From contig JBHGNT010000016.1 in NCBI GenBank assembly GCA_043228905.1, positions 13,764,001 through 13,828,000 of the forward strand: DNA of 64,000 nucleotides. Direction: 5' to 3'. Source of the DNA: Azolla caroliniana (taxonomy: Eukaryota; Plantae; Polypodiophyta). The position numbers and the translations under genes were made by a program. Positions within the stretch are counted from its first letter, which is position 1, and each line of letters opens with the position of its first letter. Shown here piece by piece: positions 5,879-62,986 of the stretch. Under the pieces are notes generated by a model. That model saw only the letters and a list, made by a program, of their open reading frames with translations, was not told where the DNA came from and did no database searches.

Positions 5879-7005
5879 TGTCAGTTGGTCAGGGTAGGCG
5901 TCGGATAAGTATGAAAGCGTCGGAGTCGACAATGTTAGGAGAAAGACAGAGTCAGAGTCGGATTGATGAGTCAGCAAATTTGTTGACTAAGTAAAAATAA
6001 ATTATAGATATTAGAGCTAGTTAGAAGTTTTGGTTAGTTCTTGCCGACAAGGAAAGTTGTAATTCTTGATGACTCAGTCTCTTGGTTTACCTATAAAAAG
6101 GAACCGAGAGTATTCTAACAATATTGTTTGTTTTGGAATTTAAGATAGTTATTAGTTAGTAGAAATCTGTGTACTTGTCTCTGAGTAATCTATCATTTTA
6201 TGCAATTATATTCTGCTCATAAATATAATAAACCAATTAGTCAATCACGATAACAGTATACAGTATCGTAAGTTGCATAGAAGTCATCCAGTATTCCATT
6301 CGTACTCCACAGTTTCTTGATAGAACGTTCATTACAGAACGTTTGGCACTATTGTTCTGTCGGTCAGAGAGGTCAACTGTCAGCCAAACAACACAATAAT
6401 TTTGGCACATACGGTGACAAGAATTTTGATTATTGTGGGTTCGACCAAGCAAGGCCTTGGCCCACGAGCGTGCCAAGTGTTAGTTGGTCAGGGTAGGCAT
6501 CGGATAAGTATGAAAGCGTCAGAGTTGACAATGTTCGAAGAAGGACAGAGTCGAAGTCGGATCGACAAGGCGGATCGATGAGTCAACAATTTTGCCAACC
6601 AAGTAAAAATTAATTATAGATATAAGAGTTAGTTAGAATTTTTGGTTAGTTCTTACCGACAAGGCAAGTTGTAATTCTTGATGAGTCAATCTCTCGGTTT
6701 ACCTATAAAAAGGAACCAAGAGTATTGTAACAATATCGTTTGTTTTGGAATTTAATATAGTTATTAGTTAGTAGAAATCTGTGCACTTCTCTCTAAGTAA
6801 TCTATCATTTTATGCGATTATATTGTGCTCGTAAATATTATAAACCAATTAGTCGATCACAATACGAGTATATAGTATCGTAAGTTACATAGGGGTGATC
6901 CGAGATTCCATTCGTACTCCATAGTTTTTTGATAGAACGTTTATTACAAAACGTTCGACACTATTGTTCTACTGGTCACAGAAGTCGATTGTCGGCCGAA
7001 CAACA
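5879..7005 (+). mobile_element. TRIM-like non-autonomous LTR element of the Athila-like family
   Basis: LTRs at 5879-6393 and 6478-7005 (TGT(C/T)AGTTGGTC...CAACA). The 84-bp interior holds a PBS-like TGGCACATACGGTG (6403) and a tRNA-like module (6432-6475). Degenerate TSD CGAAG/CGGAC. The host copia gag reads through across the site. Confidence 0.88.
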
Positions 7006-7411: not shown

Positions 7412-7478
7412 TGTTGTTGGGGTGGGGGGTGAAGCCTAGAATGGCTCCATCCCCCTCCTAAGGGGGTTACGTGTGAGG

Positions 7479-7528
<50 letters not shown>

Positions 7529-10024
7529 AGTAATGACACAAAAATGAGAGGGGGAAAAGCTATATTCCATTATGCCCCATGGGTGGGCTTTATATAGTAC
7601 AAGAGGTAACCGTTACAAAAGAATGCTTGACAAGTAGCGAGTTACATTACTTACCCACTCTCTCACTTTTATACACATGCACACAAATGTGCATGTGTTC
7701 ATACACATACTCATCCTTGCACACTCATACACATTACACATACACATCAACCACATTATCGTGTTCCACCCCTTATGCCTCCCCATATATTTTTACGGGT
7801 AACACATGGCACACCTGTGGGATAGTGCATTGCACGGTGAACCCACTCGCCATGGCAACTCTTCTCGATCAAATCATTGCTCTACGATAACTTTGATCGA
7901 AGCTTTGCTTGACTCGAACCTTCTTGTTCGGTCACAAGCCACAATTGGATTATACACTAATCGACTAGTTCACTATGGCATGGGTTGTGAAATCGTTGAC
8001 TCTATGTGTATTTTTTCTTTTGTCATATGAAGTGAGTATTACATTTTGCACCCTTTAAAAATTTTACCCTCAAGTTTTTAAAATTTTATTTTTACCCTCC
8101 AATTTTTAAAATTCTCATATTTGCCCTTGACTTTTCAAAATTATCGTCTTTGCCCTACGGTTCTTGAAATTGTGGTGATGCTGAAATTCTTCTCTCTACC
8201 CCTCTTCTCTTATTTCTTTTTCTTCTTTGTACACTTCCTTTCTTCGTCTTCTCTCTGGCTGTCTTCACGGCCGTCACTCTACCCTCCTCTCGATCACGCT
8301 TCTTGGTCATACTCTCGGGCATGCATCTCGACCATACTCTTGGTTGCGGGTCCCAGCCATACTCTTGACTGCGCGTATCAGCCGTCCTCTCGGCCACGCG
8401 TCTAGGCTATCTTCTCAGGAGACAAGTAGGTCCATGTGATGTTTAGAGCATGGAGATACGACACAAACAGAACGATATAGGGGCCAAGCCCTAGAGTCTC
8501 TTCTTCCTTCTTTCTCCTTTCTACCTTCTTCTTACTCCTTTTTTCTTTCTTTCTGCTACTGCTGTTTCTTCCTCCTTTTGCTCTTCTCTTGGTGTAGCCT
8601 TTGTCTTTCCCTGCTTTCTGTGTTTCTCCTCCCCCTCCATTCGTCTTTTCCTTCTCTGCGTCTGGTGAAGCTTCTTCCTCTTCAATCTCCTCTCCTCCTG
8701 TCCAGCTCGTCGTCGATGGCGGCCGGCCGTCGGACAGAAGGTCCGACGGTTGGCCTTGTCCGTTGTGTCCTTGTCGGCATCCGACTGTCTGACCGGTTGT
8801 CGGACGTCAATTTGGCGGTCGGCCCTATTCAGGTGGTTTTCCGATTGGTCGTCTCTCGGTTCGGTCGGTTCGGTTCGGCCGTGTCTTTCCGACCACATGC
8901 TGGGCTTCAACTGTCTCTCGGCCGGTTCGACCGTAGATCGTTTCTGTTAGGCCGCCAACTGTCGGACCGTCTGTCCACCAGCAGTCATTGTCCGGTGTAA
9001 CTTTTCGGTTTGCATGTCCAACTGCTATCGAACCGCACCTTTCGCCATCCACCTTACCATCGTTGTCTCTGTCTGTAGGCTCATCCGATTTGACAATCCT
9101 TTTCAGATTCGTGCCTCCTTCCTTTCTTGATCTTCACGGATCATCTCATTCTCGGTCACTGCAAGTATTCTTAGGATGCCTCCTTTCCCGCACTTAGACA
9201 TATTCACTTCTTTTAAATGTTCGAATGCAGTATAAATTTCTACATGATTTCCATGATTTCCTTTGATGACAATATAGAAAGAACGACAGAACTTATGGGA
9301 GAGGGAATTGACATCAAAGTGGTATACCCATCCTTCGCAGGATACTCCACTGTTTGTCCTGCCCGCAGAAGCAAACGTTATAGCTTCCCCTTAGCAAGGA
9401 GACGGACTGTCTCCCGAAGTAGACAAATAGGATTCAAGAAACGATGTGAATGGATACAATAGGAACAAATGATTAAGTCCTATTGAATTGTTAACATTAT
9501 CCCTTATATAGATAAATATGGTGCAGAAAACATTGTCAATATAGATATGGAGAATATACTAGCAGAATGAAAACTTTGCACTCTCAGACAAGGAAGGAGG
9601 AGGAGGAACAACAGAAAGAAGTAAGAAGAACAGAACAAATTCTAGATTATTGGGGCCTAAAAAACACTAATACACAGAGCCAGTGAGAACAAAAGACAAG
9701 CTTGATGATCACAGGCTATGGGGGCTCTTAAAGAAAGGAGATGGAAAAGATGAAGAAGAAAAATTGAGGGTAGACCGCCAGATAATCGAAGAGGCTATAT
9801 TCCATTATGCCCCCTGGGGTTTATATGTATAGTACAAGAGGCAACCGTTACAAAAAGAATGAGACAAGTAGGGAGTTACATTATTACTCACTCTCTCACT
9901 TTTGTACACATCCACACAAATGTGCATGTGTTCATACACATACTCATCCTCACACACTCATACACATCAACCAAATTATCGTGTTCCACCCCTTATGCCT
10001 CCCCGTATATTCTTACGGGTAACA
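7412..10024 (-). mobile_element. Non-coding LARD/TRIM-like LTR element (~2.6 kb)
   Basis: Perfect TSD GTTCC at 7407-7411 and 10025-10029. LTR 7412-7804 contains (GA)n. 7560-7804 is repeated at 9795-10024 (both end TTACGGGTAACA). tRNA-like module at 7807-7846. No recognisable coding domains. Confidence 0.8.
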
Positions 10025-15868: not shown

Positions 15869-17203
15869 CTAACCGTCGCCCTTCTTCTTTGTTGTATACA
15901 ACACGACTTTTTTCTTGGAGTCGGCGTATTGCATACACCATTCCTTGTCCTTTAGATCACAGTCAGGAAGGTCCTCACCACCAGTAGCTACTAACATTTT
16001 CTTTGGGCTAACATCATTGGATGGTTGAGATTTTGTCTCCTCGTTGAAGAGAAGCTTTTTTCCTCCCTTCATGTTCTCAGGAACTATTAGGGTCTGGGTC
16101 TCAATTGGAGAGACCTGTATCCGGAGCTTTATCTTCTTCATAGGTCGGACAAACAAGTTCTCAAACAACCTATTTAAGAAAGGACATGCGAAAACATTAG
16201 GTGGTTACCTAGATTAAGGTTGTATATTAAAATATACATAATTAGACGAAGACAAAAACTAGAAGGCGATTTGTAGTAAACTATAAATATCAATCATGTA
16301 TTGAGTGAACATGGTAGTCCTTTATTCGGAAATCCATTCTAGTAAGGGCTATTCAACTTCGAAAATTATATATCTTAATAATTATACAAGGATATATATC
16401 ATCTTAAAGGGTAGGTATGGCTTATATTGATTCCATATCCATATTGTATAGAATTTGCATATGACAGACTTAAATTTGGTATCATAAAGGTAATTCGTGG
16501 GTTATTTTCTATTATTTTATTCTATAATAGGTCATAAAACCTTTTTAAGTAAGGCCCCTAGTTACAAAATATGGCAAATGTCACTAAAAAAGTCTGAATT
16601 TGACATAAAGTTTGGTATCTTTTCACACATATACTAAATTGTTGCCCCAAAGACACAATATTCTTGTTTAAATTTTGTGTTTTATATAGGAACTCGAGGG
16701 TATCGAGTTCATGTATAAAACACATACTTTACACAGGAACTTGATACGACGTATCGAGTTCCTCTTTAAAACACAAACTTTAAACAAGAACTTGATACAA
16801 CATATCGAGTTCTTGTATAAAACACATACTTTACACAGGAACTCGATACGCCATATCGAGTTCCTGTATGAAACAAGAACTTTATACAAGAACTCGATAC
16901 GCCGTATCGAGTTCCTCTATAAAACACGAACATAATACAGGAACTCGATACGGCGTATCGAGTTCTTGTTGAAAACACAAACTTTAAACAGGAACTCGAT
17001 ACGCTGTATCGAGTTCCTATTTAAAACACAAACTTTATACAGGAACTCGATATGGCGTATGGAGTTCCTGTATAAAGTTTGTGTTTTAAATAGGAACTCG
17101 ATATGCCGTATCGAGTTCTTGAGTGCTAAAACATATTTACAAAAATGTCCAGAGTGTCAGACGCTTACCTAGAGTCTTGGCGCTCGATTTTCTTTGACGA
17201 CAT
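15869..17203 (-). CDS. Spliced ORF of unknown function, head-to-head with the Sola-like transposase (exon 1 17169-17203, exon 2 from 16169 to ~15874)
   Basis: TATAAATA at 17338-17345 (minus strand). ATG at 17203. Donor AG|GTAAGC and acceptor AAATAG|G join in frame: MSSKKIERQDSR-LFENLFVRPMKKIKLRIQ...KKKGDG. Ends at TAG 15869 or splices at G|GTTAGC. Confidence 0.6.
16672..17125. repeat. Tandem array of ~43-44 bp units (~10 copies), each with the palindrome GAACTCGATAC-N3/4-GTATCGAGTTC
   Basis: Directly visible. The last linker is inverted (ATTTAAAACACAAACTTTATA versus TATAAAGTTTGTGTTTTAAAT), giving a larger hairpin near 17020-17092. Confidence 0.92.
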
Positions 17204-25814: not shown

Positions 25815-25953
25815 CTTTATTTGTTTTGGGCCAATGATTTGTACTGCCTGGGAGATAATGTAACTTAGCCCTTCTTCTCCTCCCCAAATATTCATTCGAT
25901 CCGTCTAGACAGACACACACCATTGATTGGGGATGCTTACTCTGCAATCAGCC

Positions 25954-28826
25954 ATGGAAACTAAGCATTCTTCTTCTGCTTCTTCTCATTACTATTGCAC
26001 AGAGACGCTCCTGACATTGATCACCGCCATGGCATGCTTACTACTTGAGGCTTTCCTAATCACAATTATTCCTGTTGCAGCCAACATAACAGTCGAGAAT
26101 TATTACTTCCCCTCCTCGAACTCCGATGGCAATCTCTTCTCTTACTACAGAGACCCAGAATACAGCTCAGACACCTCTGTATACAGCGATTTCCAGATAT
26201 GTAACAATATATCACTTCTGCAAGCTCTGAATAATGAGAAGAGGCTGTACGGACGCGCCACCGACATCTACTCGGCCCACCATGTGGAATACCCTTACAT
26301 TCTCTACTTTCAGCTCTTCTTCGTCATCTCCGCGGCCGAGTTCTGCACAAAAAATAATGCCAGTACCCCGTCTTACTACCTGTCTCTCTTGGCATATAAA
26401 GGCTACGGAAAGGCACAAGACCCGAACAAGGGGCAAGTCGTGTGGACGGCCAATGTGGACAACCCGGTCGGCGAGAACGCATGCCTGGAGCTCAATGCGG
26501 GCGACACCAATCTCAAGCTTGTAGACTACGATAGGAACGGGCCGGATCGCATTGTGTGGCAGACTAATACATTCACCCCTGCCAGTGCATCCCTCACCAT
26601 TACCTTTGAGGGAAACCTGGTCCTCTTCACGAACACTACCGTTACTAATGCCTCCATGTTGACACAAAACATACTGTGGCAATCTTATGAGCATCCCACC
26701 GACACGCTCATGGTTCTGCAAGCTCTTCGGCCCGGGAATAATCTCACAGCATCCAGCGATAGTAACAAAACAGCCAACTACACGCTCATGATTAGGCCTG
26801 CTGGAAATGTTTCCCTCCATGTGAAGATCGGGTATCAATCCCTCTATAGCCATACATCTAATAATAGTACTGTAAATCACACCGGCTATGAATATCCTTA
26901 TTGGGTTTGGACTCCTAATGACATGTCCATCGGAGATACTGTGGTGCTGTGCTGGTACCTGAGCATCAAAAGCCGTCTCCAATTGGATATCCTTCCATCC
27001 GCGAATGGGTTAGTTAATAATGAATAATAATGAGTTTTGGAATGTGCACCATATAATTATCTACATGAATTGTTGACACATGTTTCCAATTCGCAATATA
27101 TATATATATATATAGATCCCTAGTTTCAAACTACACCCAAATCTCTCCGGATGATTGCCGTTCCCAATCTCAACAATCGAAAGCATTTGTATTCAAGGAT
27201 GAAGGAAGTGAGGATGAAGCCAATAGCTTGAACCCAAGGATGATTTCTGCAGAAAACTGCAAGGAGAGTTGTAAGAACCTTTGCTCTTGCACGGCCGCAT
27301 TCTGGGAGTCAGCATCATCAGGTGGTTCTTGCTTCCTCATCCAAGGTCCTGTTGCCACCATTATAGTAGTGAATGCTTCTGCAAGTAAAGAATTTCAGGG
27401 ATTTTTGAAACTCATAGACATCTCTACTCCAACCTCACACCCATCTCCATTCATCCGGATCGTAGTCGCCGTATTAGGCATCATCATAGTTATGGCCATA
27501 CTGGTGGCTGGATATCTGTACAGGAGAAGAAGACTAAAAGCCAGGAAACTTGAAGATCATAACAACATGGAAGCTGAGCTCCTGGGTGCCTCGCTTCAAG
27601 GGTCCAAGCCCCGCCGGTTCACATGGAAAGAGATGGATGAAAACACGTGTGGCTTCTCAGACCAGCTGGGGCGTGGTGGCTTTGGCAAAGTCTTCCGGGG
27701 GACTATGGCCGATGGCACGCCCATAGCCGTGAAGGAACTCAATAATGAAGGCCACCAGGGTAACAAACAGTTCATTGCCGAGGTCTCGATTCTCGGCCGG
27801 ACTCACCACCTTCACCTTGTTCGCTTGATCGGCTTCTGTCTCGAAGGTACCATGCACAAGCTCCTCGTATATGAGTACATGGAAAATGGATCCTTGGATG
27901 CTTGGATCTTCAGTAAGACCCCCAAAGATAGGTCAGAGAGCGGCGAGATTAAGGAGAACAACCGGCGGCCCGTCTTGACTTGGGAGAGGCGATTCGACAT
28001 TGCCTTGGGTACTGCCAAAGGATTGGCATACTTGCATGAAGAGTGTGAGGACAGGGTCATACATATGGATCTCAAGCCGGAGAACATACTGCTAGGACCT
28101 GATTTCTTCCCAAAGATTTCCGATTTTGGGTTGTCCCGAAGAGTAGTAAGGGGGAAAGAGAGCGCGGTCATGACCATGGCGCAGGGGACCTTGGGATACT
28201 TGGCACCCGAGTGGCTAACCGAGGGGGGGGTGACTGTGAAATGCGATGTCTACAGTTACGGGATTGTGCTCCTAGAGATCGTGAACGGGAGAAAAGTGAC
28301 AGATTGGAGAGCATTGAGGCATACGCTGGACATGAGCCGGAATCTGTGCGAGGGAGTAATGGAGCTCGTGGACGAGCGGCTCATGAGCTATGGCGTGGGT
28401 GGGGCGAAGAAGAAGATGTACGATGAGAAGCAAGCCGTGAGGATGGTGGAGGTAGCCATGATGTGCGTGCGAACCGATCCTGGGACCCGGCCGAGCATGA
28501 GCAGAGTGGTGGACATGTTGGGAGGGAAGGTGGAGACTATAGCCCTGCATGATGCCCCCATTAGTGAGGATTATCAAGAGATAGGGCTTTTAATTCCTAG
28601 CAGGAAGATGAAGGATGGAGTAGAGCTAGAGCAAGAACAGTACAGGCATCATTTCTCCAAAATTCAATGGCCCAATGAGTCTTGGGGTTCCGGATCCGGC
28701 ACCACCTCCACTACTACGATGGGCAGGACGAGGAAATCGATATTCAGTGGCAAGACATCGTACAAGTATATGGAGATCTCGAAGTCTGAGGAATACATGA
28801 ATTCACTACATCTGGGTCATACATAG
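25954..28826 (+). CDS. G-type lectin S-domain receptor-like Ser/Thr kinase (SD2-like, non-RD); exons 25954-27008 and 27116-28826, ~921 aa
   Basis: Hydrophobic N-terminus. B-lectin motifs VVWTANVDNPV, IVWQTNT, GNLVL and LWQSYEHPTDTL. PAN domain CKESCKNLCSCTAAFW. Transmembrane IVVAVLGIIIVMAILVAGYLY-RRRR. Kinase motifs GRGGFG, AVKEL, IHMDLKPENILL, DFG and GTLGYLAPE. The 107-bp intron GTTAGT...ATAG joins the two ORFs in frame (GG|A). An alternative ATG lies at 25933. Confidence 0.92.
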
Positions 28827-45423: not shown

Positions 45424-45925
45424 TGTTAATCCTTAGGGCTGGAAAATGGCCTAACACAGGGTGTCTCCTGAAGACACTTCACCAAAGGGGTGTTACGGCG
45501 AGATAACTTAAGACACAAGGATTAATTCGACTTAATTGGCTACTTAGCAATAAGGCATTCACTTAATACACACGTAAGATATAACAATTAATACAGAATG
45601 GTAATCAATATGTGAAGATAAAACAAGAAGCTTATATTAATTCTCCATTAAAGTTATACATTGTAACCGGGCCTTTATATAGGTCACCGGTGCTGCGTAC
45701 AAAACAGTGCCAACCGGCACCTGTTCGAAACCGGTCCGGATCCGGATCGGCATACCAATTCCGGTTCGTCCATTCACTACATAATTATAATCTACTTTAC
45801 TTAATTAAAATATATTCCGAAAAACCATCCCTTTCACATTCTGGTCTCTGCTCCTTTGCCGGCCGGGTAACACATGGCACGCCCGTGGGACAGTACCTTG
45901 TACGTCGAATCCCACTATCCGGCCC

Positions 45926-49869: not shown

Positions 49870-51073
49870 TGTTGTATGTATGGCTGGACTAGCCGCAACA
49901 CAGGTGTCTATCCGACACTTCTCCAAAGGGGTGGTAGGGATAGGATGTTAATACACGCGTATGATAATTACACTTAAGCACAGACGAAGACAAGATCAAT
50001 AAGCATAAGCAAAACTATATTAATTCTTCGTCACTTCATTACAAAACATCGGATCCTTTTATAGGCATCCGGCCAGATTACAATCGGTGCTCTTAGGCAA
50101 CCGTTCACCGAAACCGAATCGGTTCGGATCTGGATCGGTTACAACTACCGGATCCGTCCCTCCTAATAATTCTATTCCTATTTCTATATTTATCCGATCC
50201 GACCTTGCTTTCCCATTTGCCTTCTCTGACCGGTCAACACATGGCACGCCCGTGGGAAAGTGCATTGCACTTCGAACCCACAATAGTGTTGTATGTATGG
50301 CTGGACTAGCCGCAACACAGGTGTCTATCCGACACTTCTCCAAAGGGGTGGTAGGGATAGGATGTTAATACACGCGTATGATAATTACACTTAAGCACAG
50401 ACGAAGACAAGATCAATAAGCATAAGCAAAACTATATTAATTCTTCGTCACTTCATTACAAAACATCGGATCCTTTTATAGGCATCCGGCCAGATTACAA
50501 TCGGTGCTCTTAGGCAACCGTTAACCGAAACCGAATCGGTTCGGATCCGGATCGGTTACAACTACCGGATCCGTCCCTCCTAATAATTCTATTCCTATTT
50601 CTATATTTATCCGATCCGACCTTGCTTTCCCATTTGCCTTCTCTGACCGGTCAACACATGGCACGCCCGTGGGAAAGTGCATTGCACTTCGAACCCACAA
50701 TAGTGTTGTATGTATGGCTGGACTAGCCGCAACACAGGTGTCTATCCGACACTTCTCCAAAGGGGTGGTAGGGATAGGATGTTAATACACGCGTATGATA
50801 ATTACACTTAAGCACAGACGAAGACAAGATCAATAAGCATAAGCAAAACTATATTAATTCTTCGTCACTTCATTACAAAACATCGGATCCTTTTATAGGC
50901 ATCCGGCCAGATTACAATCGGTGCTCTTAGGCAACCGTTAACCGAAACCGAATCAGTTCGGATCCGGATCGGTTACAACTACCGGATCCGTCCCTCCTAA
51001 TAATTCTATTCCTATTTCTATATTTATCCGATCCGACCTTGCTTTCCCATTTGCCTTCTCTGACCGGTCAACA
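49870..51073 (-). mobile_element. Tandem three-LTR mini-element (three 370-bp LTRs separated by two 47-bp spacers)
   Basis: LTRs at 49870-50239, 50287-50656 and 50704-51073 (period 417 bp), near-identical. Spacer on the minus strand: CTATTGTGGGTTCGAAGTGCAATGCACTTTCCCACGGGCGTGCCATG. TSD TGTTG at 49865-49869 and 51074-51078. Confidence 0.95.
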
Positions 51074-51736
51074 TGTTGACTCTGTTAATCCGTTGGCTTG
51101 CAGATAATAGGGAGTGCTCCATTTGTGCACCACCGCATAAAATGTCGTCAAACTTTCCACTATTTGCTCTAAGAAGTGCCCACCTTGGTCACTTATGAGC
51201 TCTATTGGACATCCATACCGGCACCAGATGCATTCATATAAAAATTTTGCCATGGATGCCGCGGTGTTATCGCATAGTGCTTTCGCTTCCACCCATTTTG
51301 TTGGCCGGTCAGAAGAGCAAGGACAAGTGGGAAGGCGGAATCGGATCGGATAATAGGAAGTAATAGTAGGATTATTATTCGGAGGGACGGATTCGGTTCA
51401 GTTGTACCGATCCGGATCCGAACCGATTCGGATGTCGGTTGCCTAAGCGCACCGATTGTAACCTTGCCGGATGCCTATAAAAGGATCCGATGATTTGTAA
51501 AGTGTTTTGACGGAAGTAATACAATAGTAATTATTGTGTATTTATCTGTATCTCGTATTGTTTGCCGTCCGTGCTTAATTGTAATCATATTATGCGTGTA
51601 ACCTAGCATCCAATCCTTACCACCCCTTTGGAGAAGTGTCGGGTAGACACCTGTGTTGAGGCTAGTCCGGCCAGACAGACAACACTATTTTGGCGACCAC
51701 GATTCCTACAAAGTGCAGAGGACATCCGGGGGATGG

Positions 51737-54700
51737 ATGTCTAGAACAAACGACGACCACATCACCGAACGAGGGAGACGATACACCGAACGCGAGCAAC
51801 GACGGGAAGCCCTGCAACAAGCCGTCAACGAGATCCGGCGGGATCGGTCATTCTCCAAAACTCTTCGGAGAGTCGCAGAAGAAGCACTGCAGTTCCGGGT
51901 TCTGCAAATCCCCGACGAAGGTAGTAGCATAACAAGCCTGCAAGAGGCAGAAACGATACTGCAGACGCTCGCCGCGGGCGACGGGGACTCGGAAGCATTC
52001 ACAACACTTGAGGCGGAGTCGGAAAGCGACGGAAGCGTTGCATCCCGGTATAAAAGCAGCCACGACACACCAAACGACCGGGAGGACGAGGGGTCGGAAG
52101 ACTCAGTAACACCGGCGCCAGAGGAAGAAATAACCCTGGAATTCGGTGATCGGCAACCGCCGAGGAAGGCTGACCGGATACCGACAACAACCGCGAGGGA
52201 ACCGAAGGAGCGGATACCGACAACACCCGCGGAGGAACCAACGGACCGGACACCGGTAACACCCGCGGAGGAACCAAAGGTTCTCACACCAACGCCAACA
52301 ACGGACAGAGAATGGAGGGAACAGGAGAGTCAGTTGGACGACACGATGCCGTACCCATACCCAAAGTACCGGGATGAGGCCGACGTGGAGGCACACGTGT
52401 ACGCATTCCTCCAAACATGGGAAGCCAACCATATCTCCCAAAGACTGACGGAGCCCGAAGCCGAACGATCCAAAATCGCCGAATTCGGCATAACCTTAGA
52501 AGGACCGGCGGCCCAATGGCACACAAAGCACTTACCAGGCACCTTTGCCACATTCGATGCCTTGAAGGCCAGATTCCTCAGGTTTTTTCACAGACAATTT
52601 GAGCAAAGGGAATTGGTCGGGCAGTTCTACACCACCCGGCAGGAAGAGAACGAGACTATGCCACAATTCATCATTCGGTTCCAGACCCTGCACAACCAAC
52701 TGACAAGAGCACCACCCGAAGACGAAGCCAAAGCAGTCTTTCTGGCCGCACTGAAAGAGCCACTTTGAACAATGTGCGGAGTCCTTGATTTCCAAACCAG
52801 CACAATGGAGCAAGTTATTGATCGGGTTTTAGAAATGGACAAGACTAGCCCCTTCTTGACGATGGGGATGTTACACCGGGCACTCCCAAAAGAGGAAGAC
52901 CTGAGGTTCCAACAGGCCTTACAATGTACAACATGCCTAAATTCGGGGCACTCAACAGTAGACTGCACCCTGCGGACACAATGTGTGATCTGCAACTCTT
53001 GAGCCCATACAACGGACCGATGCGAATACAACCTGTTAAATCGGCAGGCAGCACCGGTTCGACACATAGAACCGCGCAATCAGAACCCGGACGAGGATCG
53101 ATTCCGGAGAGACGACCGCTACCAACGGGAGCGCGGTAACAGATACGCTGATAGAAGACGCGACAACTATGACCGAGAGGAGAGACGCAGAGATAGCTAC
53201 CCCCGGGACCGGTACGACAGAGACGAATCCCCGGAAGACGACAGACGCGGAGAAGAGAGGCGACAAGGATACGCTGATAGAAGACGCGACAACTATGACC
53301 GAGAGGAGAGACGCAAAGAAAGCTACCCCCGGGACCGGTACGACCGAGACGGAGCCCCGGAATACGACCGACGCGGAGAAGAGAGGCGACAAGGGAACCG
53401 AAATTTCCGACGGAATCAGAAGCGTGGATTTTTCCGAAGAGAGGAACGTCGGGAGGCAGCAAGGAATGACAACCCGGTATCCGTACCGGATAACCGAAAA
53501 ACCGAAGACGACCGCCGGAGCATACCCACCCTCCAAACCAGGGACAAAGGAGAAACGAGCAACAGTCACAAGGTGTACTGTTATTACTGCCGCAAGGAAG
53601 GCCACTATAGTAACCAAGGCCCAAGCAAAAGCTATGACAAGCAGCCGGAAGTCAACATGGTTACAGCCGAAATAACAGAAGTATAGCAGGTCACAACCCG
53701 GTCAAAGGGAAAGACCGCCGAGTGGGAAGCCCAGGAGGCAATCAGAAAACAAGCGACACAATGGATCAAGGAGGCCAATGAACAGAATGCGGCAGAAGTA
53801 AGAGACCAAAATATGCCAAAAGACGAAGAAATCATACAGCCAGGAGAAAACCCGACGTGGCAAGCGCTACAGGACTGTCAAATTGTGCTGCCGTTAGCAC
53901 GACTACTACAGTTAGTGCCACGATTTACGGCAGACCTACAGGCATCCGTCAGCAAACCGAAGCCGATGCCATCACCGGCATTCTTCTCCAACCCGGAGGA
54001 AGGACCAGCGGTGGTCGATACAAGTAGCCCGACGATCACGACAATCGTGAAAGGAAAGGAAATTGCTGGAACGATTATTGACGGAGACTTCGGGTAAATG
54101 TCATCAGCCAACAGACATGCAACGACCTGGGCATCCGGGAATGGGAACCATGGCCCTTCTGGTTACGCATGGCGGATACTAGCTCAGTCCGACCGACCGG
54201 GCTTATCCGAGATTTGGAAATCACGATCGGAGGCCACGTATTCCGGATATCGGCCGTAGTGCTGCAGCTGAATGTACAAGGCGCGTACCCCCTACTGCTA
54301 GGACGACCGTGGCTGCGAACGGCGCATATCAAGCAGAACTGGCAAAAGAACATGATCACATTCCGGCGAGGGAAAACAAAGGTACGAGTAACGACGCAAC
54401 CACGGGTGATCACCAGTAAGGAAGCAACTCCATTGTATGCGGAAAGCATTAACATGTTGGAGGGATTACCGGACGAGGAAGTCGAGCGGTACCTCGAGGA
54501 ACACCCACGAATCGTCCCACTATTTGAGGTGGATATCACGGCGGCAGTAGAACCGTACATTACGATGCCGGAAGAACCGGACCAAGCGGCGATCCGGGAA
54601 CTACGACAAGCGCAGGAATCCCTAGAGAGGGAAATGAAGATATCCCAGAGGGTAAAAGCATCCCAGCTCGAGGAGGTGGACCTCGGCACAGCAGACAAGC

Positions 54701-57696
54701 CCCGACCGGTAAATGTTGCAAAGGAATTGCCGAAGGAAGAAAAGAAGGCAATGGTAGCATTGTTAACAGACTTCAAGGATGTGTTCGCGTGGTCGTACGA
54801 AGACATGCGAGGGTTGGACCCCCAGCTCTATCAGCACCAAATTCACCTAAGTACGGATGCGAAACTGATTGCTCAACGCAGGTACCGGATGAATCCGAAT
54901 TATGCGGCAAAGGTGAAGGAGGAAATTGATAAGCTCCTCCGGGTCGGATTTATCCGACCGGTCAAGCAGGCAACCTGGCTGAGTCCGATAGTGGTGGTCC
55001 CGAAAAAGAACGGAAAAATCCGGGTATGCGTGGACTACCGAAAACTAAATGCCGCGACAGTGACCGATGCGTTTCCACTACCATTTACGGACGGGGTGTT
55101 AGATGCGGTAGCCGGGCACGAAGTTTACAGCTTCCTGGATGGATTTAGCGGCTACAACCAAATACGAATGAACCCGGCCGACCAAGAGAAGACAGCGTTC
55201 GTGACGGAATGGGGAGTGTTCGTCGCGGTCGTGATGATGTTCGGACTAAAGACGGCTCCAGCGACCTTTCAAAGGATAATAATGGAAATTTTCGGGGAAT
55301 ATATCCCCGGTTTTATGCAGGTCTTCCTTGACGATTTCGCGGTCTACAACCGGCACGGAGAGCATCTCGATCACCTCCGGCTATGCTTGGAGAAGTGCCG
55401 CGAGTACCGATTGAGCCTGAATCCGGCCAAGTGCGTCTTTGGAGTGGCAAGCGGCAACTTGCTAGGGTACGTGGTGAGTAAGGAAGGAATCGCGGTAGAT
55501 CCGGATAAAGTCAAGGCGATTCTCGATGCACCAGCACCAAGTAACGCAAAGGCTTTAAGCAGGTTCTTGGGCCAAATAAGGTGGCATAGCCGAATGATAC
55601 GGCACCTCGCGGACTTCGCTACACCGTTACATACCGTCGTACATAGGGTACCCTTCCTATGGGCAGAGACGGAGGAGGAAGCCTACAAAGCGTTGAAGGT
55701 CATGCTGTCGCAAGCTCCGGTGGTGCAACCGCCGGATTGGAGTAAAAGCTTTCACGTCTTCGTCGACGCGTCGGACGTAGCAATCGGCAGCGTTCTGATG
55801 CAACTCACAGAGCCGAAATGGTACCGACCGGTGTACTACGCAAGCCGGAAACTCTCAAAAGCCGAACGGAATTACTCTACGACGGAACGCGAGGCATTGG
55901 GAATGGTGTATAGTGTCACAAAGTACAGGCACTATCTGCTCGGAAGGAAGTTTTCCTTCCATGTCGACCATTCGGCACTACTCTACCTGGTCTCGAAGGC
56001 ATCCCTGACGGGAAAAATTGCACGGTGGACACTGCTACTACAGGAATTTGAATTCGACATTTTCCACCGACCCGGGGCGCAACATGCGGTAGCGGACTAT
56101 CTAAGCCGACTTGAATCCAGAGAAGCAGGGGACGGCGTCCAGGATGAGTTTCCCGACGCCGAATTGTTTCGGATCATGACGAAACCGGCAACGGATACAA
56201 CGGTAGCCGACGAAGACACATGGCTAACTGAGATGCACCAGTTCCTGAGCACCGGAGTTCCCCCGGAAAACATGGACCGCGATGAAAGGAAAAGGGTAGC
56301 AGTAAGAAGTAGACATTTCTGCTTGGTTGGAGACACCCTCTATCACAAGGGGGCAGATGGCATCTGGAGACAAGCAGTGCAGAGCGATGAGAAGGATCTA
56401 ATCCTCAGGGAAGCCCACTGTGGAATTGCCGGCGGGCATTATGCCGGCGACGCAACCGCTCGGAAAATATGGCAGAGCAGACTGTGGTGGCCGACCACCC
56501 TAAAAGATGCCGTGAAGTATAGCAGAGAATGCGATTTGTGTCAACGACTGGGCCAACCCACAGAGCAGGCCCGGATGCCACACCACCCGGTCTTGCCCTT
56601 AGAACCGTTTCAAAAGTGGGGGTTGGACTTTGTCGGTCCCTTCAAACCACAAGCAATGCGAACCGGAAATCAGTATGTCATAGTGGCGACCGACTATTGC
56701 ACCAAATGGGTAGAAGCAAAGGCCTTACGGGACAACACGGCCGCTTCCACGGCAAAGTTTCTGTACAAATGCATATGGTGCCAGTATGGATGCCCGATCG
56801 AGCTTATAAGTGACCAAGGAGGACATTTTCTCGGGCAGGTAGTAGAAAGCCTGACGTCATTTTACGCGGTGGTACATAAAAAGAGTACACCCTACTACCC
56901 TCAAGCCAATGGACTAGCGGAATCAACGAAAAAAACTCTGCAGAACATCCTACGAAAAATCGTCAACGAGAACCGGACCGACTGGGATATGAAATTGCAA
57001 AGCGCGCTATGGGCGTACCGAACAACGTACAAAACCAACATCCGGACAACCCCGTTCCGACTAGCATTCGGGTTAGAAGCGGTCATGCCGGTAGAATTCC
57101 AGATCCCCAACTTACGGATTCAGGTAAAGGAGCACTTAAGTGAGAACGAGTCCGAACGAATCCGACTGGCAACGCTGTTGGAATTAGAGGAAAACTGAAT
57201 AGCCAGCTTACTACAACTCGAATTGGAGCAAAGGAGGAGAAAAGCCTTCGTGGACCGACATCGGCGTGGCAATGAAAAGGAGTTCGAAGTCGGGAAACCG
57301 GTGCTATTATTCCAGACAAGGATGGGGAACATGCCGGGAAAGTTGCGGTTTCGATGGACCGGACCGTTCTGGATCACCAAGGAGTACAATGGGTCGTATC
57401 AGCTCGGCACGTTGTCTGGAGATGTCATCGGCAAATGGGCAAATGGATTTCGGCTAAAGCCATATAAAGGAAATATGCCAGCCAACCCGTTCAAGCGAAA
57501 CCCGGAAATCCGGCAAGATGAGGAACCGACACCGACAGACGCTGCTGAAGACATTCGGACCGAGGAAGAACCGACACCGATACTGACGAGGACCATCCCG
57601 GAAAACCGACAAAAGGATCCGGTATCCACACGAACCGACCCGAACAAATCGGGGGGGGACCAGCAAATGACGTGGTCCAAGCAAAAGAAAAAATAA
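51737..57696 (+). pseudogene. gag-pol polyprotein (gag, zinc knuckles, PR, RT, RNase H, integrase) with a few point lesions
   Basis: Motifs QCTTCLNSGH, CYYCRKEGH, IIDG, CVDYRKLN, FLDDF, VDASD..EREAL..DH, HCGIAGGH..CDLCQ, WGLDF..ISDQG..NGLAE and WTGPF. Stops at 52766, ~53000, ~53684 and 57196, and a frameshift at ~54092. No additional archaeal-type RNase H between RH and INT. Confidence 0.93.
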
Positions 57697-57946
57697 AAAT
57701 AAAAAGAAAAAAATAAAATAAATATATATATATATATATATATATAAATAATAATAAAATAAAATAAAAAATAACGTGGGCAAAATCGACGCGAATCATC
57801 GTAATGATGGGGAGATCACAAGAGGTGGGAGCGCCACCATGCAACGAAGAGGCGCCATGCATTAAAGAAGGACGTGTGCAGACTTGCTATTTAAAGCAGG
57901 GAACGTGGGCACTCACACGCGGCAAATAAGAAAGGACATACTAATT

Positions 57947-60900
57947 ATGGCGGGAGAGGAACATGCGCGGGAAACGAAAAAGGACGGCTCGAGGCACAAC
58001 CCACTATATAAGACACAGGCCTGCGAAGGGATCACTTTTTACGAATTTTCCTACATACAGGCGCAGAAGCACAGAAGAGCGACCCGACGCACAGAGCACA
58101 CACAACGTGATCCCGAACAACAGGCAGCAGACGAAGAATTCGAAGCAATGGTACTGTCGGAAGAGGCACGCCAATGGATGAGGGAGAACGGGTTAAAAGG
58201 ATTGCTGCGGATCGCCGACGCTCCACCACACGCAGAACCAGAGCAGGCGGCAGCATCGATCGATATATCAGAAGTCACGGAAGGAGCGGTGCAGGCACTC
58301 ACGGGGATCAAAGCAGGAGGACTGCAAACAATCGAAAACTCTTCCAGTGAAATCCTGTTCGAATATTTCGGGGAATACTCTATCAGCAGCAAGGCGTACC
58401 GAACGCAGGGCGGAGAGAACCTGTTGTTCGGAGAAGTGGCCCGCGCTATGATGGAATACGGATTCGTGAATCCCCGTCCCCCAGCCATAGCCAAGTACCG
58501 GGCAGCATTCTTGATAGCAGCGTACGAGGGCTTACAAATAGACTGGCTCCATTTCATAACCGAAGGATTGAAGGAGGCCATCAAAAATCTGGTGGAAGGA
58601 AAAAAGCCATGGGCCGGGATCGCACAATGGCTAACGGTGTTAGTCCCACCGGTACTCCCCATCACACAAAAGAAAAGAGGTCGGCAGGAGACGACGCCGA
58701 AAAAGGTCACAAAGCGCCGACAGATCTTGGAGAAACACACCCCCGGATGGACCCCGCAAGAAGCAGAACAGCAGGGGGAAGGACCATCCCGACAGCCACA
58801 GGAACCGGCAACAAAGACAAAACCGGCAGGTAAAGGCAAAGGGAAAGCGGCCGAGGAGGAACCGGTACCAAAGGTCTCTAGACAAAAGGTCCGTCTGGTA
58901 ACCGCACCGGAGGAGGAAACTGAAACAGAAGACTCATCCGAACCACTGGTAAGACTCCCAGCAAGACAAGGTCGGGAGAAACGGGCGAAAGGACCGGCTC
59001 CACCAGTAGCCGAGGCGGAAACAGCACCGGAACCCGTACCCAGGGAAGCAGCACCGACACCGGTTGGGGCGGACTTCAGAAAACCGGTCATCCCAGAGAA
59101 GAAGAAGGAACGAGTGCCGGAGCCGGAGCCAGAGAAGAGGCCGGAAAATCAGCCTGGCTTAAGTGAGCAAGGCCACCCCGAAATCGGAAGCACAAAGCCA
59201 CAATGGCTAAGATGGATTTCGGAGCAGTTATCGGGAGTAGCAGACCAGTTAGAGAAAGAAGAAACGTGTCGGCAACAGCTGACGCATACAACAACTCAGG
59301 AGTTGGTCGCGCTCCGAACACAGATCAAGGAAATGCAAGGGGATCTGTTGCAGGCAAGGGAAGGAATCCAACAAGCACAAGCTGTCACCGAGCCGGTCGG
59401 GACAACAAGGAAGCAACCAGAACCGGAACCGGAACCGGTAGCCTTGCAAACTGGCCCTGAGACCGAAAAAATAATAGAAACCTTACGAGAGGAGTTACAA
59501 GCTCAGGAGGCATTAAGGGAAAGAGAAAGGGAGCAGCGGAAAGCGGTGGAGGATGACAAACGAAAAATGGAAGAAGGCCTCCGGAAAGGTCGAGCCGCTA
59601 ATGACCGACTGCAAGAAGAAAAAGAGAAGCTACAGAAGGAGAAGGACCGACTACGTCGACATGCCGAACAAGAGATAGAACGACTGCAGGAAGAACTCCG
59701 ACAACAGAAGGACCGGGACGATCGGTTAAGAGCTCAGGCAACCCAACGCCTGAAGCAGAAGACGGAGGACTTCGACCGTCTCTACCGAGATCACAAGCAG
59801 GCCGAGTCGGACAACAAAAAACGAGCAGCAGACTACGACCGGCAAATAGAGAAGCTGAAAGAGCAGCTCAAAGAGACCCGATTAGACCTGGCTAAGGCGA
59901 TGGATGAGGTCAGTGCCAACAAGGAAGCATTGTCGGCGGAAATAGCCCAAGCAACGGAGAGAAGGAAGGAATTAGAGGCGCTAAGGCGGGAAAAGCTGGA
60001 CCTGACCAAGATCAGGAATGAAGAAAAGGAAAAATCGACCTTCACGATCAGCAAACTGCAGAGTACCTATGAAAAGCAGAAAGCAGATTACGAGGCCCAG
60101 GCTCAGATAATGGCCGACATATAGCTCGGCTGCCTGTTGTGACGCCTGAAGCAGAAGACGGAGGACTTCGACCGTCTCTACCGAGATCACAAGCAGGCCG
60201 AGTCGGACAACAAAAAACGAGCAGCAGACTACGACTGGCAAATAGAGAAGCTGAAAGAGCAGCTCAAAGAGACCCGATTAGACCTGGCTAAGGCGATGGA
60301 TGAGGTCAGTGCCAACAAGGAAGCATTGTCGGCGGAAATAGCCCAAGCAACGGAGAGAAGGAAGGAATTAGAGGCGCTAAGGCGGGAAAAGCTGGACCTG
60401 ACCAAGATCATGAATGAAGAAAAGGAAAAATCGACCTTCACGATCAGCAAACTGTAGAGTACCTATGAAAAGCAGAAAGCAGATTACGAGGCCCAGGCTC
60501 AGATAATGGCCGACATTATAAAACGGGAAAGGAAGGAAAAGTAGGAAGCTTATGCGCATGCTAAGGCAGGAGTTGACCGGATCAAGCTCATCATGTCAGG
60601 ATGGAGTACCCGAGCTCAGGCAAGTATCAACGAAAGTACGGAAAAGCTATGGAAGGAGTGGTCACAACAGGCAGCCGAGCTGCAGACACTCCGAGCGGAT
60701 GCCGAGAATCGGAAGAAGACCGGTGACAGGTTCTACAAGATGGATGAAGAAAGTATCGTCGCCATTCGGGAGGAATTGTCGGAGGATTTCTACACTTTAG
60801 CAGAAGAACACCTCAAAGAAATCCGAGGGTTGGTAGAGAGGTTGGATGACGGGCAGCTCGCAACTCAGTTGGAGTTGGAGAGATACGAGCAGGACCGGTT

Positions 60901-61371: not shown

Positions 61372-61411
61372 GTGGATTCGAAGTGCAAGGCACTTTCCCA
61401 CGGGCGTGCCA
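61372..61411 (+). other. tRNA-Arg-like 3'-half module at the PPT position
   Basis: GTGGATTCGA-AGTGCAAGGCACT-TTCCCACGGGCGTGCCA, then TG, then the LTR TGTTG. Homologous modules at 6435-6475(+), 7807-7846(-), 45875-45915(-), 50242-50281(-) and 50659-50698(-). Confidence 0.85.
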
Positions 61412-62986
61412 TGTGTTGGCCGGTCAGAAGAGCAAGGACAAGTGGGAAGGCGGAATCGGATCGGATAATAGGAAGTAATAGTAGGATTATTATTCGGAGG
61501 GACGGATTCGGTACAGTTGTACCGATCCGGATCCGAACCGATTCGGATGTCGGTTGCCTAAGCGCACCGATTGTAACCTTGCCGGATGCCTATAAAAGGA
61601 TCCGATGATTTGTAAAGTGTTTTGACGGAAGTAATACAATAGTAATTATTGTGTATTTATCTGTATCTCGTATTGTTTGCCGTCCGTGCTTAATTGTAAT
61701 CATATTATGCGTGTAACCTAGCATCCAATCCTTACCACCCCTTTGGAGAAGTGTCGGGTAGACACCTGTGTTGAGGCTAGTCCGGCCAAACAGACAACAT
61801 ATTTCGTGCAGTAATCCGTAGTGACGATCACATACCGGTTGCCGGTTCTCATTGCCGGTGGTTTGAAAGGACCGACAGAATCTAGCCCCCATTTCTGAAA
61901 TGGTTCTAATGGTAGCACGGGCTGGTGAGGCATTCTGGCTTGTTCGGTTGGTTGGCCCATTCGTTGACATAGGTCGCATTCTTTAGCGTACCGGACTGCA
62001 TCCTTCAATGTTGTCGGCCACCATAGTCCACTCTGCCATATTTTCCTTGCCATAGCGTCTCCGGCATAATGTCCTCCAGCCACACCGCAGTGTGCTTCGC
62101 GCAATATTATTTCCTTTTCGTCGTTGCGCACTGCACGCCGCCATATGCCATCTGCGCCTTTGTGGTACAGTGTGTCCTGTAATAGACAGAAGTGTCGGCT
62201 TTGAACCGCAAAGCGTTTCCTTTTGTCTCTATTCATCTCCTCCGGAGGTAAGCCTGTGCTCAGGAATTGGTGCATGTTGGTGAGCCACTTTTCTTCCTCT
62301 ACGACTGAACTATCTGTTGTCGTTTCTGCTGTGAATCTAAACAGCTCTGCATCAGGAAAGTCGTCTGGTACTCCGTCACCGGTTTCGCTGGAATGCAACC
62401 AGCTTAAATAGTCCGCTACCGCATGTTGTATGCCGGGTCGGTGGAATATCTCGAACTCGAATTCTTGAAATAGTAACGTCCACCGGGCCAGATTACCGGT
62501 GAGTGATGCTTTGGACACCAAATAGAGGAGCGCCGAATGATCTACGTGAAAGGAAAATTTCCTTCCCAACAGATAGTGTCTAAACTTGGTGACATTGTAG
62601 ATCATACCCAAGGCCTCCCTTTCCGTTGTGGAGTAATTCCGTTCCACTTGGGACAGCTTCCGGCTGGCATAATAGACTGGCTGGTACCATTTCGGTTCTG
62701 TCAATTGCATCAGTGCACTCTTGATTGCGATGTTGGACGCGTCAACGAACACATGGAACTCTTTTGACCAATCCGGGGGTTGCACCACCGGCGCTTGTGA
62801 CAACAGTACTTTTAGTGCCCGGTAAGCCTGGTCTTCTGTGTTCGTCCATCGGAACGGTGTCCGATGTACCGCGGCATGCAGTGGTGTAGCCAGGTCTGCC
62901 AAATACCAGAGCATTCGGCTATGCCACCGAATTTGTTCTAAGAACCGGCTTAGTGCCTTTGTCGTGGCTGGTGCGGGTGCCTCCCG

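Follow-up and report, generated by a model that had tools for sequence, protein, structure and literature searches.

As far as the available parts of the relevant papers go, plus-strand synthesis in LTR retroelements is described as primed by polypurine tracts (PPTs) only (PMC5371799, PMC13191261, PMC4139406, PMC13332604, PMC4408406). In LTR retrotransposons and retroviruses, the PPT comes from the element's own RNA as a purine-rich piece that lies directly upstream of U3 and sets the left edge of the LTR, as outlined in excerpts of PMC5371799, PMC13191261 and PMC4139406. For the minus strand, the accessible passages of PMC5371799 and PMC13191261 describe the bipartite primer-binding site (PBS) of Ty1 and Ty3 and the primer over-extension of lentiviruses, in which the acceptor end and the T arm of the tRNA pair with two loop-separated segments at the 5' end of the genomic RNA. 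LTR elements with tRNA-derived sequence are also known as the Helenus TRIMs, in which, according to part of PMC10886601, the tRNA-like portion lies inside the LTR, is proposed to be a Pol III promoter, and is accompanied by both a PBS and a PPT. Among the non-chromovirus Ty3/gypsy elements, namely Athila, Tat, Phygy, and Selgy (PMC6317226), together with the Tat-like moss elements without an additional archaeal-type RNase H (aRH) that are compared among them (PMC4408406), the excerpts of these two sources make no mention of a tRNA-like site in place of the PPT.

In the current study, we analyzed a window of 64,000 nt of Azolla caroliniana DNA (contig JBHGNT010000016.1 of GCA_043228905.1, positions 13,764,001-13,828,000 of the forward strand), which is a nest of plant LTR retrotransposons. 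Ty3/gypsy elements in this nest carry, 2 nt before the 3' LTR and thus at the usual place of the PPT, a short module that corresponds to positions 49-57 and 61-76 of the host tRNA-Arg(UCU), minus one acceptor-stem base, with a hairpin at positions 58-60. The module is probably (roughly 0.8) a second, split primer-binding site on minus-strand DNA, where host tRNA-Arg(UCU) would prime the plus strand. This reading is drawn from the position of the module, the lack of a purine tract, the separate 5' PBS, the match to the tRNA, the covariation of the hairpin, and junctions between the tRNA and U3. Only slightly less firmly, the data point to a lineage without a PPT in which both strands would be tRNA-primed, by tRNA-Arg(UCG) or tRNA-Arg(UCU) on the RNA and by tRNA-Arg(UCU) on the minus-strand DNA. 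The element itself is of a known kind; its priming mode appears to be new.

Element B, on the plus strand, has the order 5' LTR (51299..51684), PBS (51691..51703), gag, RT-RNase H-integrase, extra ORF, module (61372..61411, at the PPT position), 2 nt, and 3' LTR (61414..61799). The PBS is an ordinary one with 13-nt complementarity to the host tRNA-Arg(UCG); the stop-to-stop frame with the gag domain (Retrotrans_gag) spans 51647..52765, and the pol frame with RT, RNase H, and integrase spans 54082..57195. The LTR pair has TG..CA ends and its 5-bp flanks match at four of five positions; perfect 5-bp duplications were found for two other elements of the window. The extra sense ORF at the 3' side (57866..60121, 752 aa) belongs to no Pfam family, is 36-88% conserved across families, and gave a weak Atlas lead to ATHILA/Transposase_32 clusters (0.87). 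A 396-nt tandem duplication (59746-60516, 99%) overlaps the end of this ORF.

Paired LTRs, a target-site duplication, gag followed by RT-RNase H-integrase in Pfam, and a tRNA PBS place these elements in Ty3/gypsy, the one departure being the PPT before the 3' LTR, which all 112 copies lack. In the pol of element B, Pfam matched neither a second RNase H family nor a chromodomain, and the distance from RNase H to the integrase zinc finger is 153 residues versus 440-740 in two seed-plant matches. A tree without labelled references puts the RT together with liverwort, fern, and unnamed sequences (about 50% identity) and apart from the seed-plant matches. Compared with the descriptions in the available part of PMC6317226, the gag, the RT-RH-INT order, and the lack of a chromodomain are shared with Athila, Tat, Phygy, and Selgy, and the tRNA-Arg PBS with TatIII, Ogre, and Retand, but the aRH of Tat (TatI-III, Ogre, Retand) is absent here. 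By the same source, the lack of aRH, the 5-bp target-site duplication, and the extra 3' sense ORF resemble Athila, whose PBS, however, matches tRNA-Asp, Asn, or Ala rather than Arg; Phygy and Selgy differ in having a 4-bp duplication and tRNA-Trp (Phygy) or tRNA-Ala (Selgy).

The other modules of the window lie in elements of various states. The copy at 6435..6475 (plus strand) belongs to an old TRIM-like copy with a 5' LTR at 5879..6393 and a 3' LTR at 6478..7005, which are 86% identical and have 5-bp flanks matching at three of five positions. Its tRNA match at 49-57 covers 6435-6443, the A58 position is 6444, the hairpin occupies 6445-6460, and the part matching tRNA 61-76, with one acceptor-stem base absent and a CCA end, covers 6461-6475, leaving a 2-nt spacer (6476..6477) before the TG of the LTR. 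A decayed PBS of its own (6403..6415), separated from the 5' LTR by 9 nt and similar to the PBS that related families have for tRNA-Arg(UCU), lies 20 nt upstream of this module. Spacers between module and LTR are 2 nt in most families and 4-5 nt in some; those between U5 and PBS were 4-9 nt (51685-51690, 6394-6402, and related loci). On the minus strand, the module at 7807..7846 is separated by 2 nt from a 3' LTR (7804-7412); the element to which both belong (7412-10024) has suffered deletions, is non-coding, and shows a 5-bp target-site duplication. The module of element A (45875..45915) stands before a 3' LTR running from 45872 to about 45424, with an extra ORF and pol upstream on the same strand in the same order as in element B. 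Also on the minus strand, an LTR-module-LTR-module-LTR array (49870..51073, period 417, modules at 50242-50281 and 50659-50698) is flanked by a perfect 5-bp target-site duplication; no PBS was found in it, and U5 abuts the module exactly at the position-49 edge.

A 19-letter pattern composed of the 3' half of the module and the LTR start matched the 523-Mb genome exactly at 1,953 places, and its reversed control at none, giving a family of about 2,000 copies, some with identical LTRs. Metagenome contigs yielded 97 matches, of which 89 were the same module beside a related LTR start and eight were unrelated chance matches that were dropped. The data comprise one genome and metagenome contigs possibly of the same or a close species. 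The module is also covered by contigs of four sequencing runs from three coded organisms. In viral contigs, the pattern found no module and a protein search no relative. For the structural analysis, 202 module copies were gathered, and the 186 in one register gave 80 distinct 41-mers; the 16 with a shifted register, including the copy at 6435, were excluded from the pair counts.

The position of the module at the PPT place and the different PBS at the 5' end of the element are points that the earlier note on this DNA did not contain. None of 112 copies had a polypurine tract at the U3 edge, with at most nine purines in the last 15 nt in all 112. Since the module sits at this edge without a purine tract, it replaces the PPT. 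Purine-rich sequence does occur in some families at a distance of 25-35 nt upstream of the module, but it was rejected as a PPT, because the 5' LTRs start at the TG after the module. Within 20 upstream stretches of 10 kb, a close pol (60% or more) was found on the same strand in nine and in the opposite orientation in none; two had the extra ORF alone, and nine had no close coding match. Three of the 20 reached a 5' LTR followed by its PBS. In the main families, this 5' PBS matches the host tRNA-Arg(UCG), and in some families tRNA-Arg(UCU) is used at the 5' PBS too. The claim that the module is not a passive copy of a PBS is therefore borne out by the separate 5' PBS, the gag-pol running towards the module, and the covarying hairpin.

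The hairpin occupies the 58-60 position of the tRNA register, as had been proposed, and all five of its described variants were recovered, at 6445-6460 (+), 7825-7835 (-), 45893-45903 (-), 50270/50687 (-, tandem), and 61381 (+), three of the five being on the minus strand. Compensatory changes were confirmed in the 80 distinct copies, in which five of six pairs change on both sides and 93.8% of cells are paired in a register with a bulged T. The pairing claim thus holds, but not in the unbulged register originally drawn, which pairs only 71.3%; the bulged T is invariant in 186 of 186 copies of the common register. The covariation score of the hairpin was 0.472 versus 0.195 for shuffled alignments (reached in 0 of 500), and slid registers scored 0.02-0.12. 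As shuffles ignore relatedness, the LTRs of 152 copies were in addition placed on a tree; this tree, which is rough and built on 280 nt of divergent LTR, gave at least 11 Watson-Crick-to-Watson-Crick switches (1, 4, 1, 2, 3, and 0 per pair). The triloop begins with AA in 184 of 186 copies, as described, although its third base is not restricted to G or T (AAG 120, AAT 36, AAA 23, AAC 5, TTA 2), so that the loop is AAN rather than AAK. G-T and C-A appositions in the hairpin both occur at methylation-prone sites, so the strand signal is mixed.

The outer stem behaves differently. Its CCCAC side is mostly present, in 91 of the first 100 copies listed by an unanchored search, but the proposed upkeep of a GTGGG/CCCAC stem was not supported by covariation, as none of the five pairs changes on both sides; the stem is unpaired at two positions in 27 and 26 of 80 rows, which were chosen on CCCAC, so that the 3' side was fixed by the search. 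The copy at 61381 has GTGGA instead of GTGGG, and the copy at 7825 lacks the TTCGA that was said to come directly before the hairpin in each copy. The copy at 6445 appears decayed, and its folding was no better than that of shuffles (z -0.4 to -0.5). Single-strand folding energies were left out of the support, because in most copies they could not be distinguished from shuffles. As the hairpin covaries and the outer stem does not, the hairpin is selected as a structure and its flanks as sequence.

The flanks match the tRNA. Five host tRNA-Arg(UCU) genes were found, none of which encodes CCA, and the match to the module consists of 15 nt plus 7-9 nt on the minus strand. The module is tRNA-sense in the element RNA, and the tRNA can therefore pair with minus-strand DNA only. 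Positions 51-57 carry 99 changes in 152 copies, and 94 of these are of the G>A or T>C type; such changes remain wobble-compatible with the tRNA on the minus strand and spoil the T arm in the element RNA; positions 49-50 vary freely and often mismatch the tRNA. Thirteen G>A cases at position 57 fall at CpG and may have arisen by methylation decay. A three-way junction was obtained for four of four window copies when the tRNA was cofolded with the minus strand under RNA-only or DNA-only parameters, which are approximations, and with A58 held unpaired. The absence of one acceptor-stem base was seen in about 2,000 copies across families, with an extra A at this place in two ordinary modules, L296 and L311, whose 7-nt acceptor counts against priming by tRNA-Arg(UCU).

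No tRNA was found in the window by ARAGORN or Rfam, and the module lacks the D arm, the anticodon arm, and the 5' acceptor strand of a tRNA. Without a cloverleaf, a selected T-stem, or a position inside the LTR, it does not fit a tRNA gene, a tRNA mimic, or a sequence of the Helenus type; unlike the latter, it lies outside the LTR, takes the place of the PPT, and is limited to the 3' 40 nt. What sets it apart from a PPT is that it is not rich in purines and that it matches a host tRNA, which was found joined to U3. As in Ty1, Ty3, and the lentiviruses, the acceptor end and the T arm fall on two loop-separated segments, but with the opposite polarity, at the 3' end, on minus-strand DNA, and with a covarying hairpin as the separating loop. 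What the module does share with a primer-binding site is complementarity to a host tRNA 3' end and a place next to an LTR edge. Of the two functions suggested in the earlier note, a role in reverse transcription, such as positioning, is the most likely, whereas a tRNA mimic folded by the element RNA is at odds with a T-stem that lacks covariation and with changes at positions 53 and 55 that break the mimic and suit a tRNA on the minus strand.

Based on this evidence, plus-strand priming could proceed as follows. RNase H would clear the RNA from the minus-strand DNA, and the tRNA 3' end (61-76, with one base bulged) and the T arm (about 49-57) would pair with the DNA on either side of the hairpin in a three-way junction that leaves tRNA 58-60, including m1A58, unpaired. 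The hairpin likely bridges this unpairable stretch and positions RT, which is the least certain part of the model and to which we give about even odds. From the CCA end, RT would then synthesize DNA across the spacer of 2-5 nt and on into U3, after which RNase H would normally remove the tRNA and integrase would trim the spacer. If removal failed, the finishing minus strand would copy the tRNA, usually up to m1A58, and genomic footprints would result. RT on a tRNA template is described as stopping at m1A58 after 18 nt in the available part of PMC13191261.

A search for the genuine tRNA 3' end with CCA identified 45 loci (30 exact, two from another search, and 13 with a single mismatch), of which 10 lie at the U3 start (seven events), 27 on the U5 side, two in ordinary modules, and six are unclassified, the orientation being set against module-anchored LTRs. 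The seven independent U3 events (L107-109, L110, L113, L129/130, L304, L307, L312), in which tRNA is continuous with the DNA at U3, show genuine tRNA with CCA and without the hairpin, 18-63 nt in length, with a spacer like that of the module. The copies are 57 nt in L107-109, 51 nt in L110, where A58 is read as T, 63 nt in L304, and exactly 18 nt in L129/130, L307, and L312, with one mismatch each in the last two; L113 is a tRNA/module hybrid. Each of L110, L307, and L312 has its tRNA copy in front of the 5' LTR, an Arg(UCG) PBS after this LTR, and, at the 3' end of the same element, a module with the hairpin and a 6-nt acceptor. This layout indicates that the tRNA copy is not the module and that tRNA-Arg(UCU) is not the minus-strand primer of that element. 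In L129/130, U5 and a spacer are joined to the 18-nt tRNA copy and then to U3, as in a two-LTR junction with a retained primer.

tRNA-Arg(UCG) served as the control: of 100 loci found with a copy of it, 30 were inspected, and all 30 had the copy on the U5 side. The difference in side between the two tRNAs gave a Fisher p of 0.012, a rough value because events are compared with loci. The U3 footprints are rare, aberrant products, with seven events versus about 2,000 copies, and they could also be template switches onto a co-packaged tRNA through 10 nt of shared sequence, an origin that would still need the tRNA at the U3 edge. Module, LTR, and PBS in succession occurred in five of 51 copies and were not counted as footprints. 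L011, with an unrelated repeat directly upstream of the hairpin, was read as a nested insertion, and L185, L186, L188, and L189, in which family sequence continues upstream, as tandem elements. The junction in L131, where a tRNA end is joined to internal gag-pol in sense orientation with 2 nt of microhomology, was not counted; it would fit ectopic priming.

Further rearrangements were observed at the LTR edges. At about 100 loci, U5 is followed by a 17-18 nt copy of tRNA-Arg(UCG), and most of the 30 inspected (L329-L358) are joined to unrelated DNA, indicating that aberrant right ends are common in the module family. L324 (4864-6310) has three tandem LTRs linked by a spacer and 18-nt tRNA copies, followed by a PBS and gag. 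In L111, L112, and L121, around position 1500, a 5' LTR end with a true-tRNA PBS is fused to an antisense module, an arrangement that annealing of strong-stop DNA to the module RNA could produce. L323 (110-7700) is a chimera with 99% identical LTRs that encloses the pol of another family in reverse, with an antisense module at the PBS position and a tRNA/module hybrid at the 3' end.

The main result against priming by the tRNA is the tandem array at 49870..51073, where U5 is joined to the position-49 edge of the module, as a retained primer of module RNA would leave it. It speaks for the idea that the element's own RNA is the plus-strand primer, its tRNA-like 3' half surviving RNase H, being cut after CCA, and acting in the manner of a structured PPT, as does the end of the module in CCA 2 nt from the LTR; moreover, some copies can fold a T-stem along with the hairpin in the sense RNA, the tandem copy reaching z -2.05. 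We nevertheless consider this tRNA-mimic reading unlikely, and we favor a second primer-binding site on minus-strand DNA over it. Zero of five T-stem pairs covary, the T arm is broken by G53>A (60 of 152 copies) and by T55>C (20 of 152), and one 13-copy cluster retains only three stem pairs; a self-folded primer would also have fewer bases free for the template. The left-end footprints, moreover, are host tRNA and not module, and a search with the two main hairpin types found the module-type junction only once, in two matches that both belong to the array.

It is less probable still that the module serves end-to-end pairing of the RNA or captures a tRNA for packaging, by 5' PBS pairing or as a decoy, while another RNA primes the plus strand. 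The use of tRNA-Arg(UCU) at the 5' PBS in several families does make PBS and module complementary over about 10 nt, but the main families with an Arg(UCG) 5' PBS retain the Arg(UCU) module and have footprints of this second tRNA at U3, tRNA-sense RNA is unable to pair with the tRNA, and the U3 edge shows no other primer. That the module is the element's own, ordinary PBS for copying of the opposite strand, where the other strand reads LTR end, 2 nt, and TGG and where L323 has its antisense module, or a passive relic of a captured tRNA or inverted PBS, is the most improbable reading, rejected by gag-pol running towards the module, by the separate PBS after the 5' LTR, by read-through of Arg(UCG) at U5 as expected for a true minus-strand primer, and, for the relic, by covariation across families whose LTRs are 70-75% identical.

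If the reading of the module as a second primer-binding site is true, a successful family of about 2,000 copies would depart from the rule of the RNase H-resistant PPT by using a second tRNA on a DNA template, and dual-tRNA priming would be a new copying mode for this class of LTR retroelements. We know of no precedent for tRNA-primed plus strands, and literature searches on titles and the beginnings of abstracts, with most subscription journals and Repbase outside their coverage, returned no report of them. The model makes testable how RT would tell RNA from DNA binding sites, how two tRNAs would be packaged, how RNase H would clear a tRNA from the edge of U3, and whether such elements could be silenced at the second site by 3' tRNA fragments. 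It also predicts misannotation, since tools that orient elements by PBS and PPT could reverse module elements or score them as PPT-less.

Besides the module elements, the window has a 51-nt tandem repeat at 16649-17158, which is internally palindromic and has long inverted repeats, with weak Rfam miRNA matches below thresholds. Two long ORFs at 25927-28826, with B-lectin, PAN, and kinase domains of an S-domain receptor-like kinase, lie among the retrotransposons.
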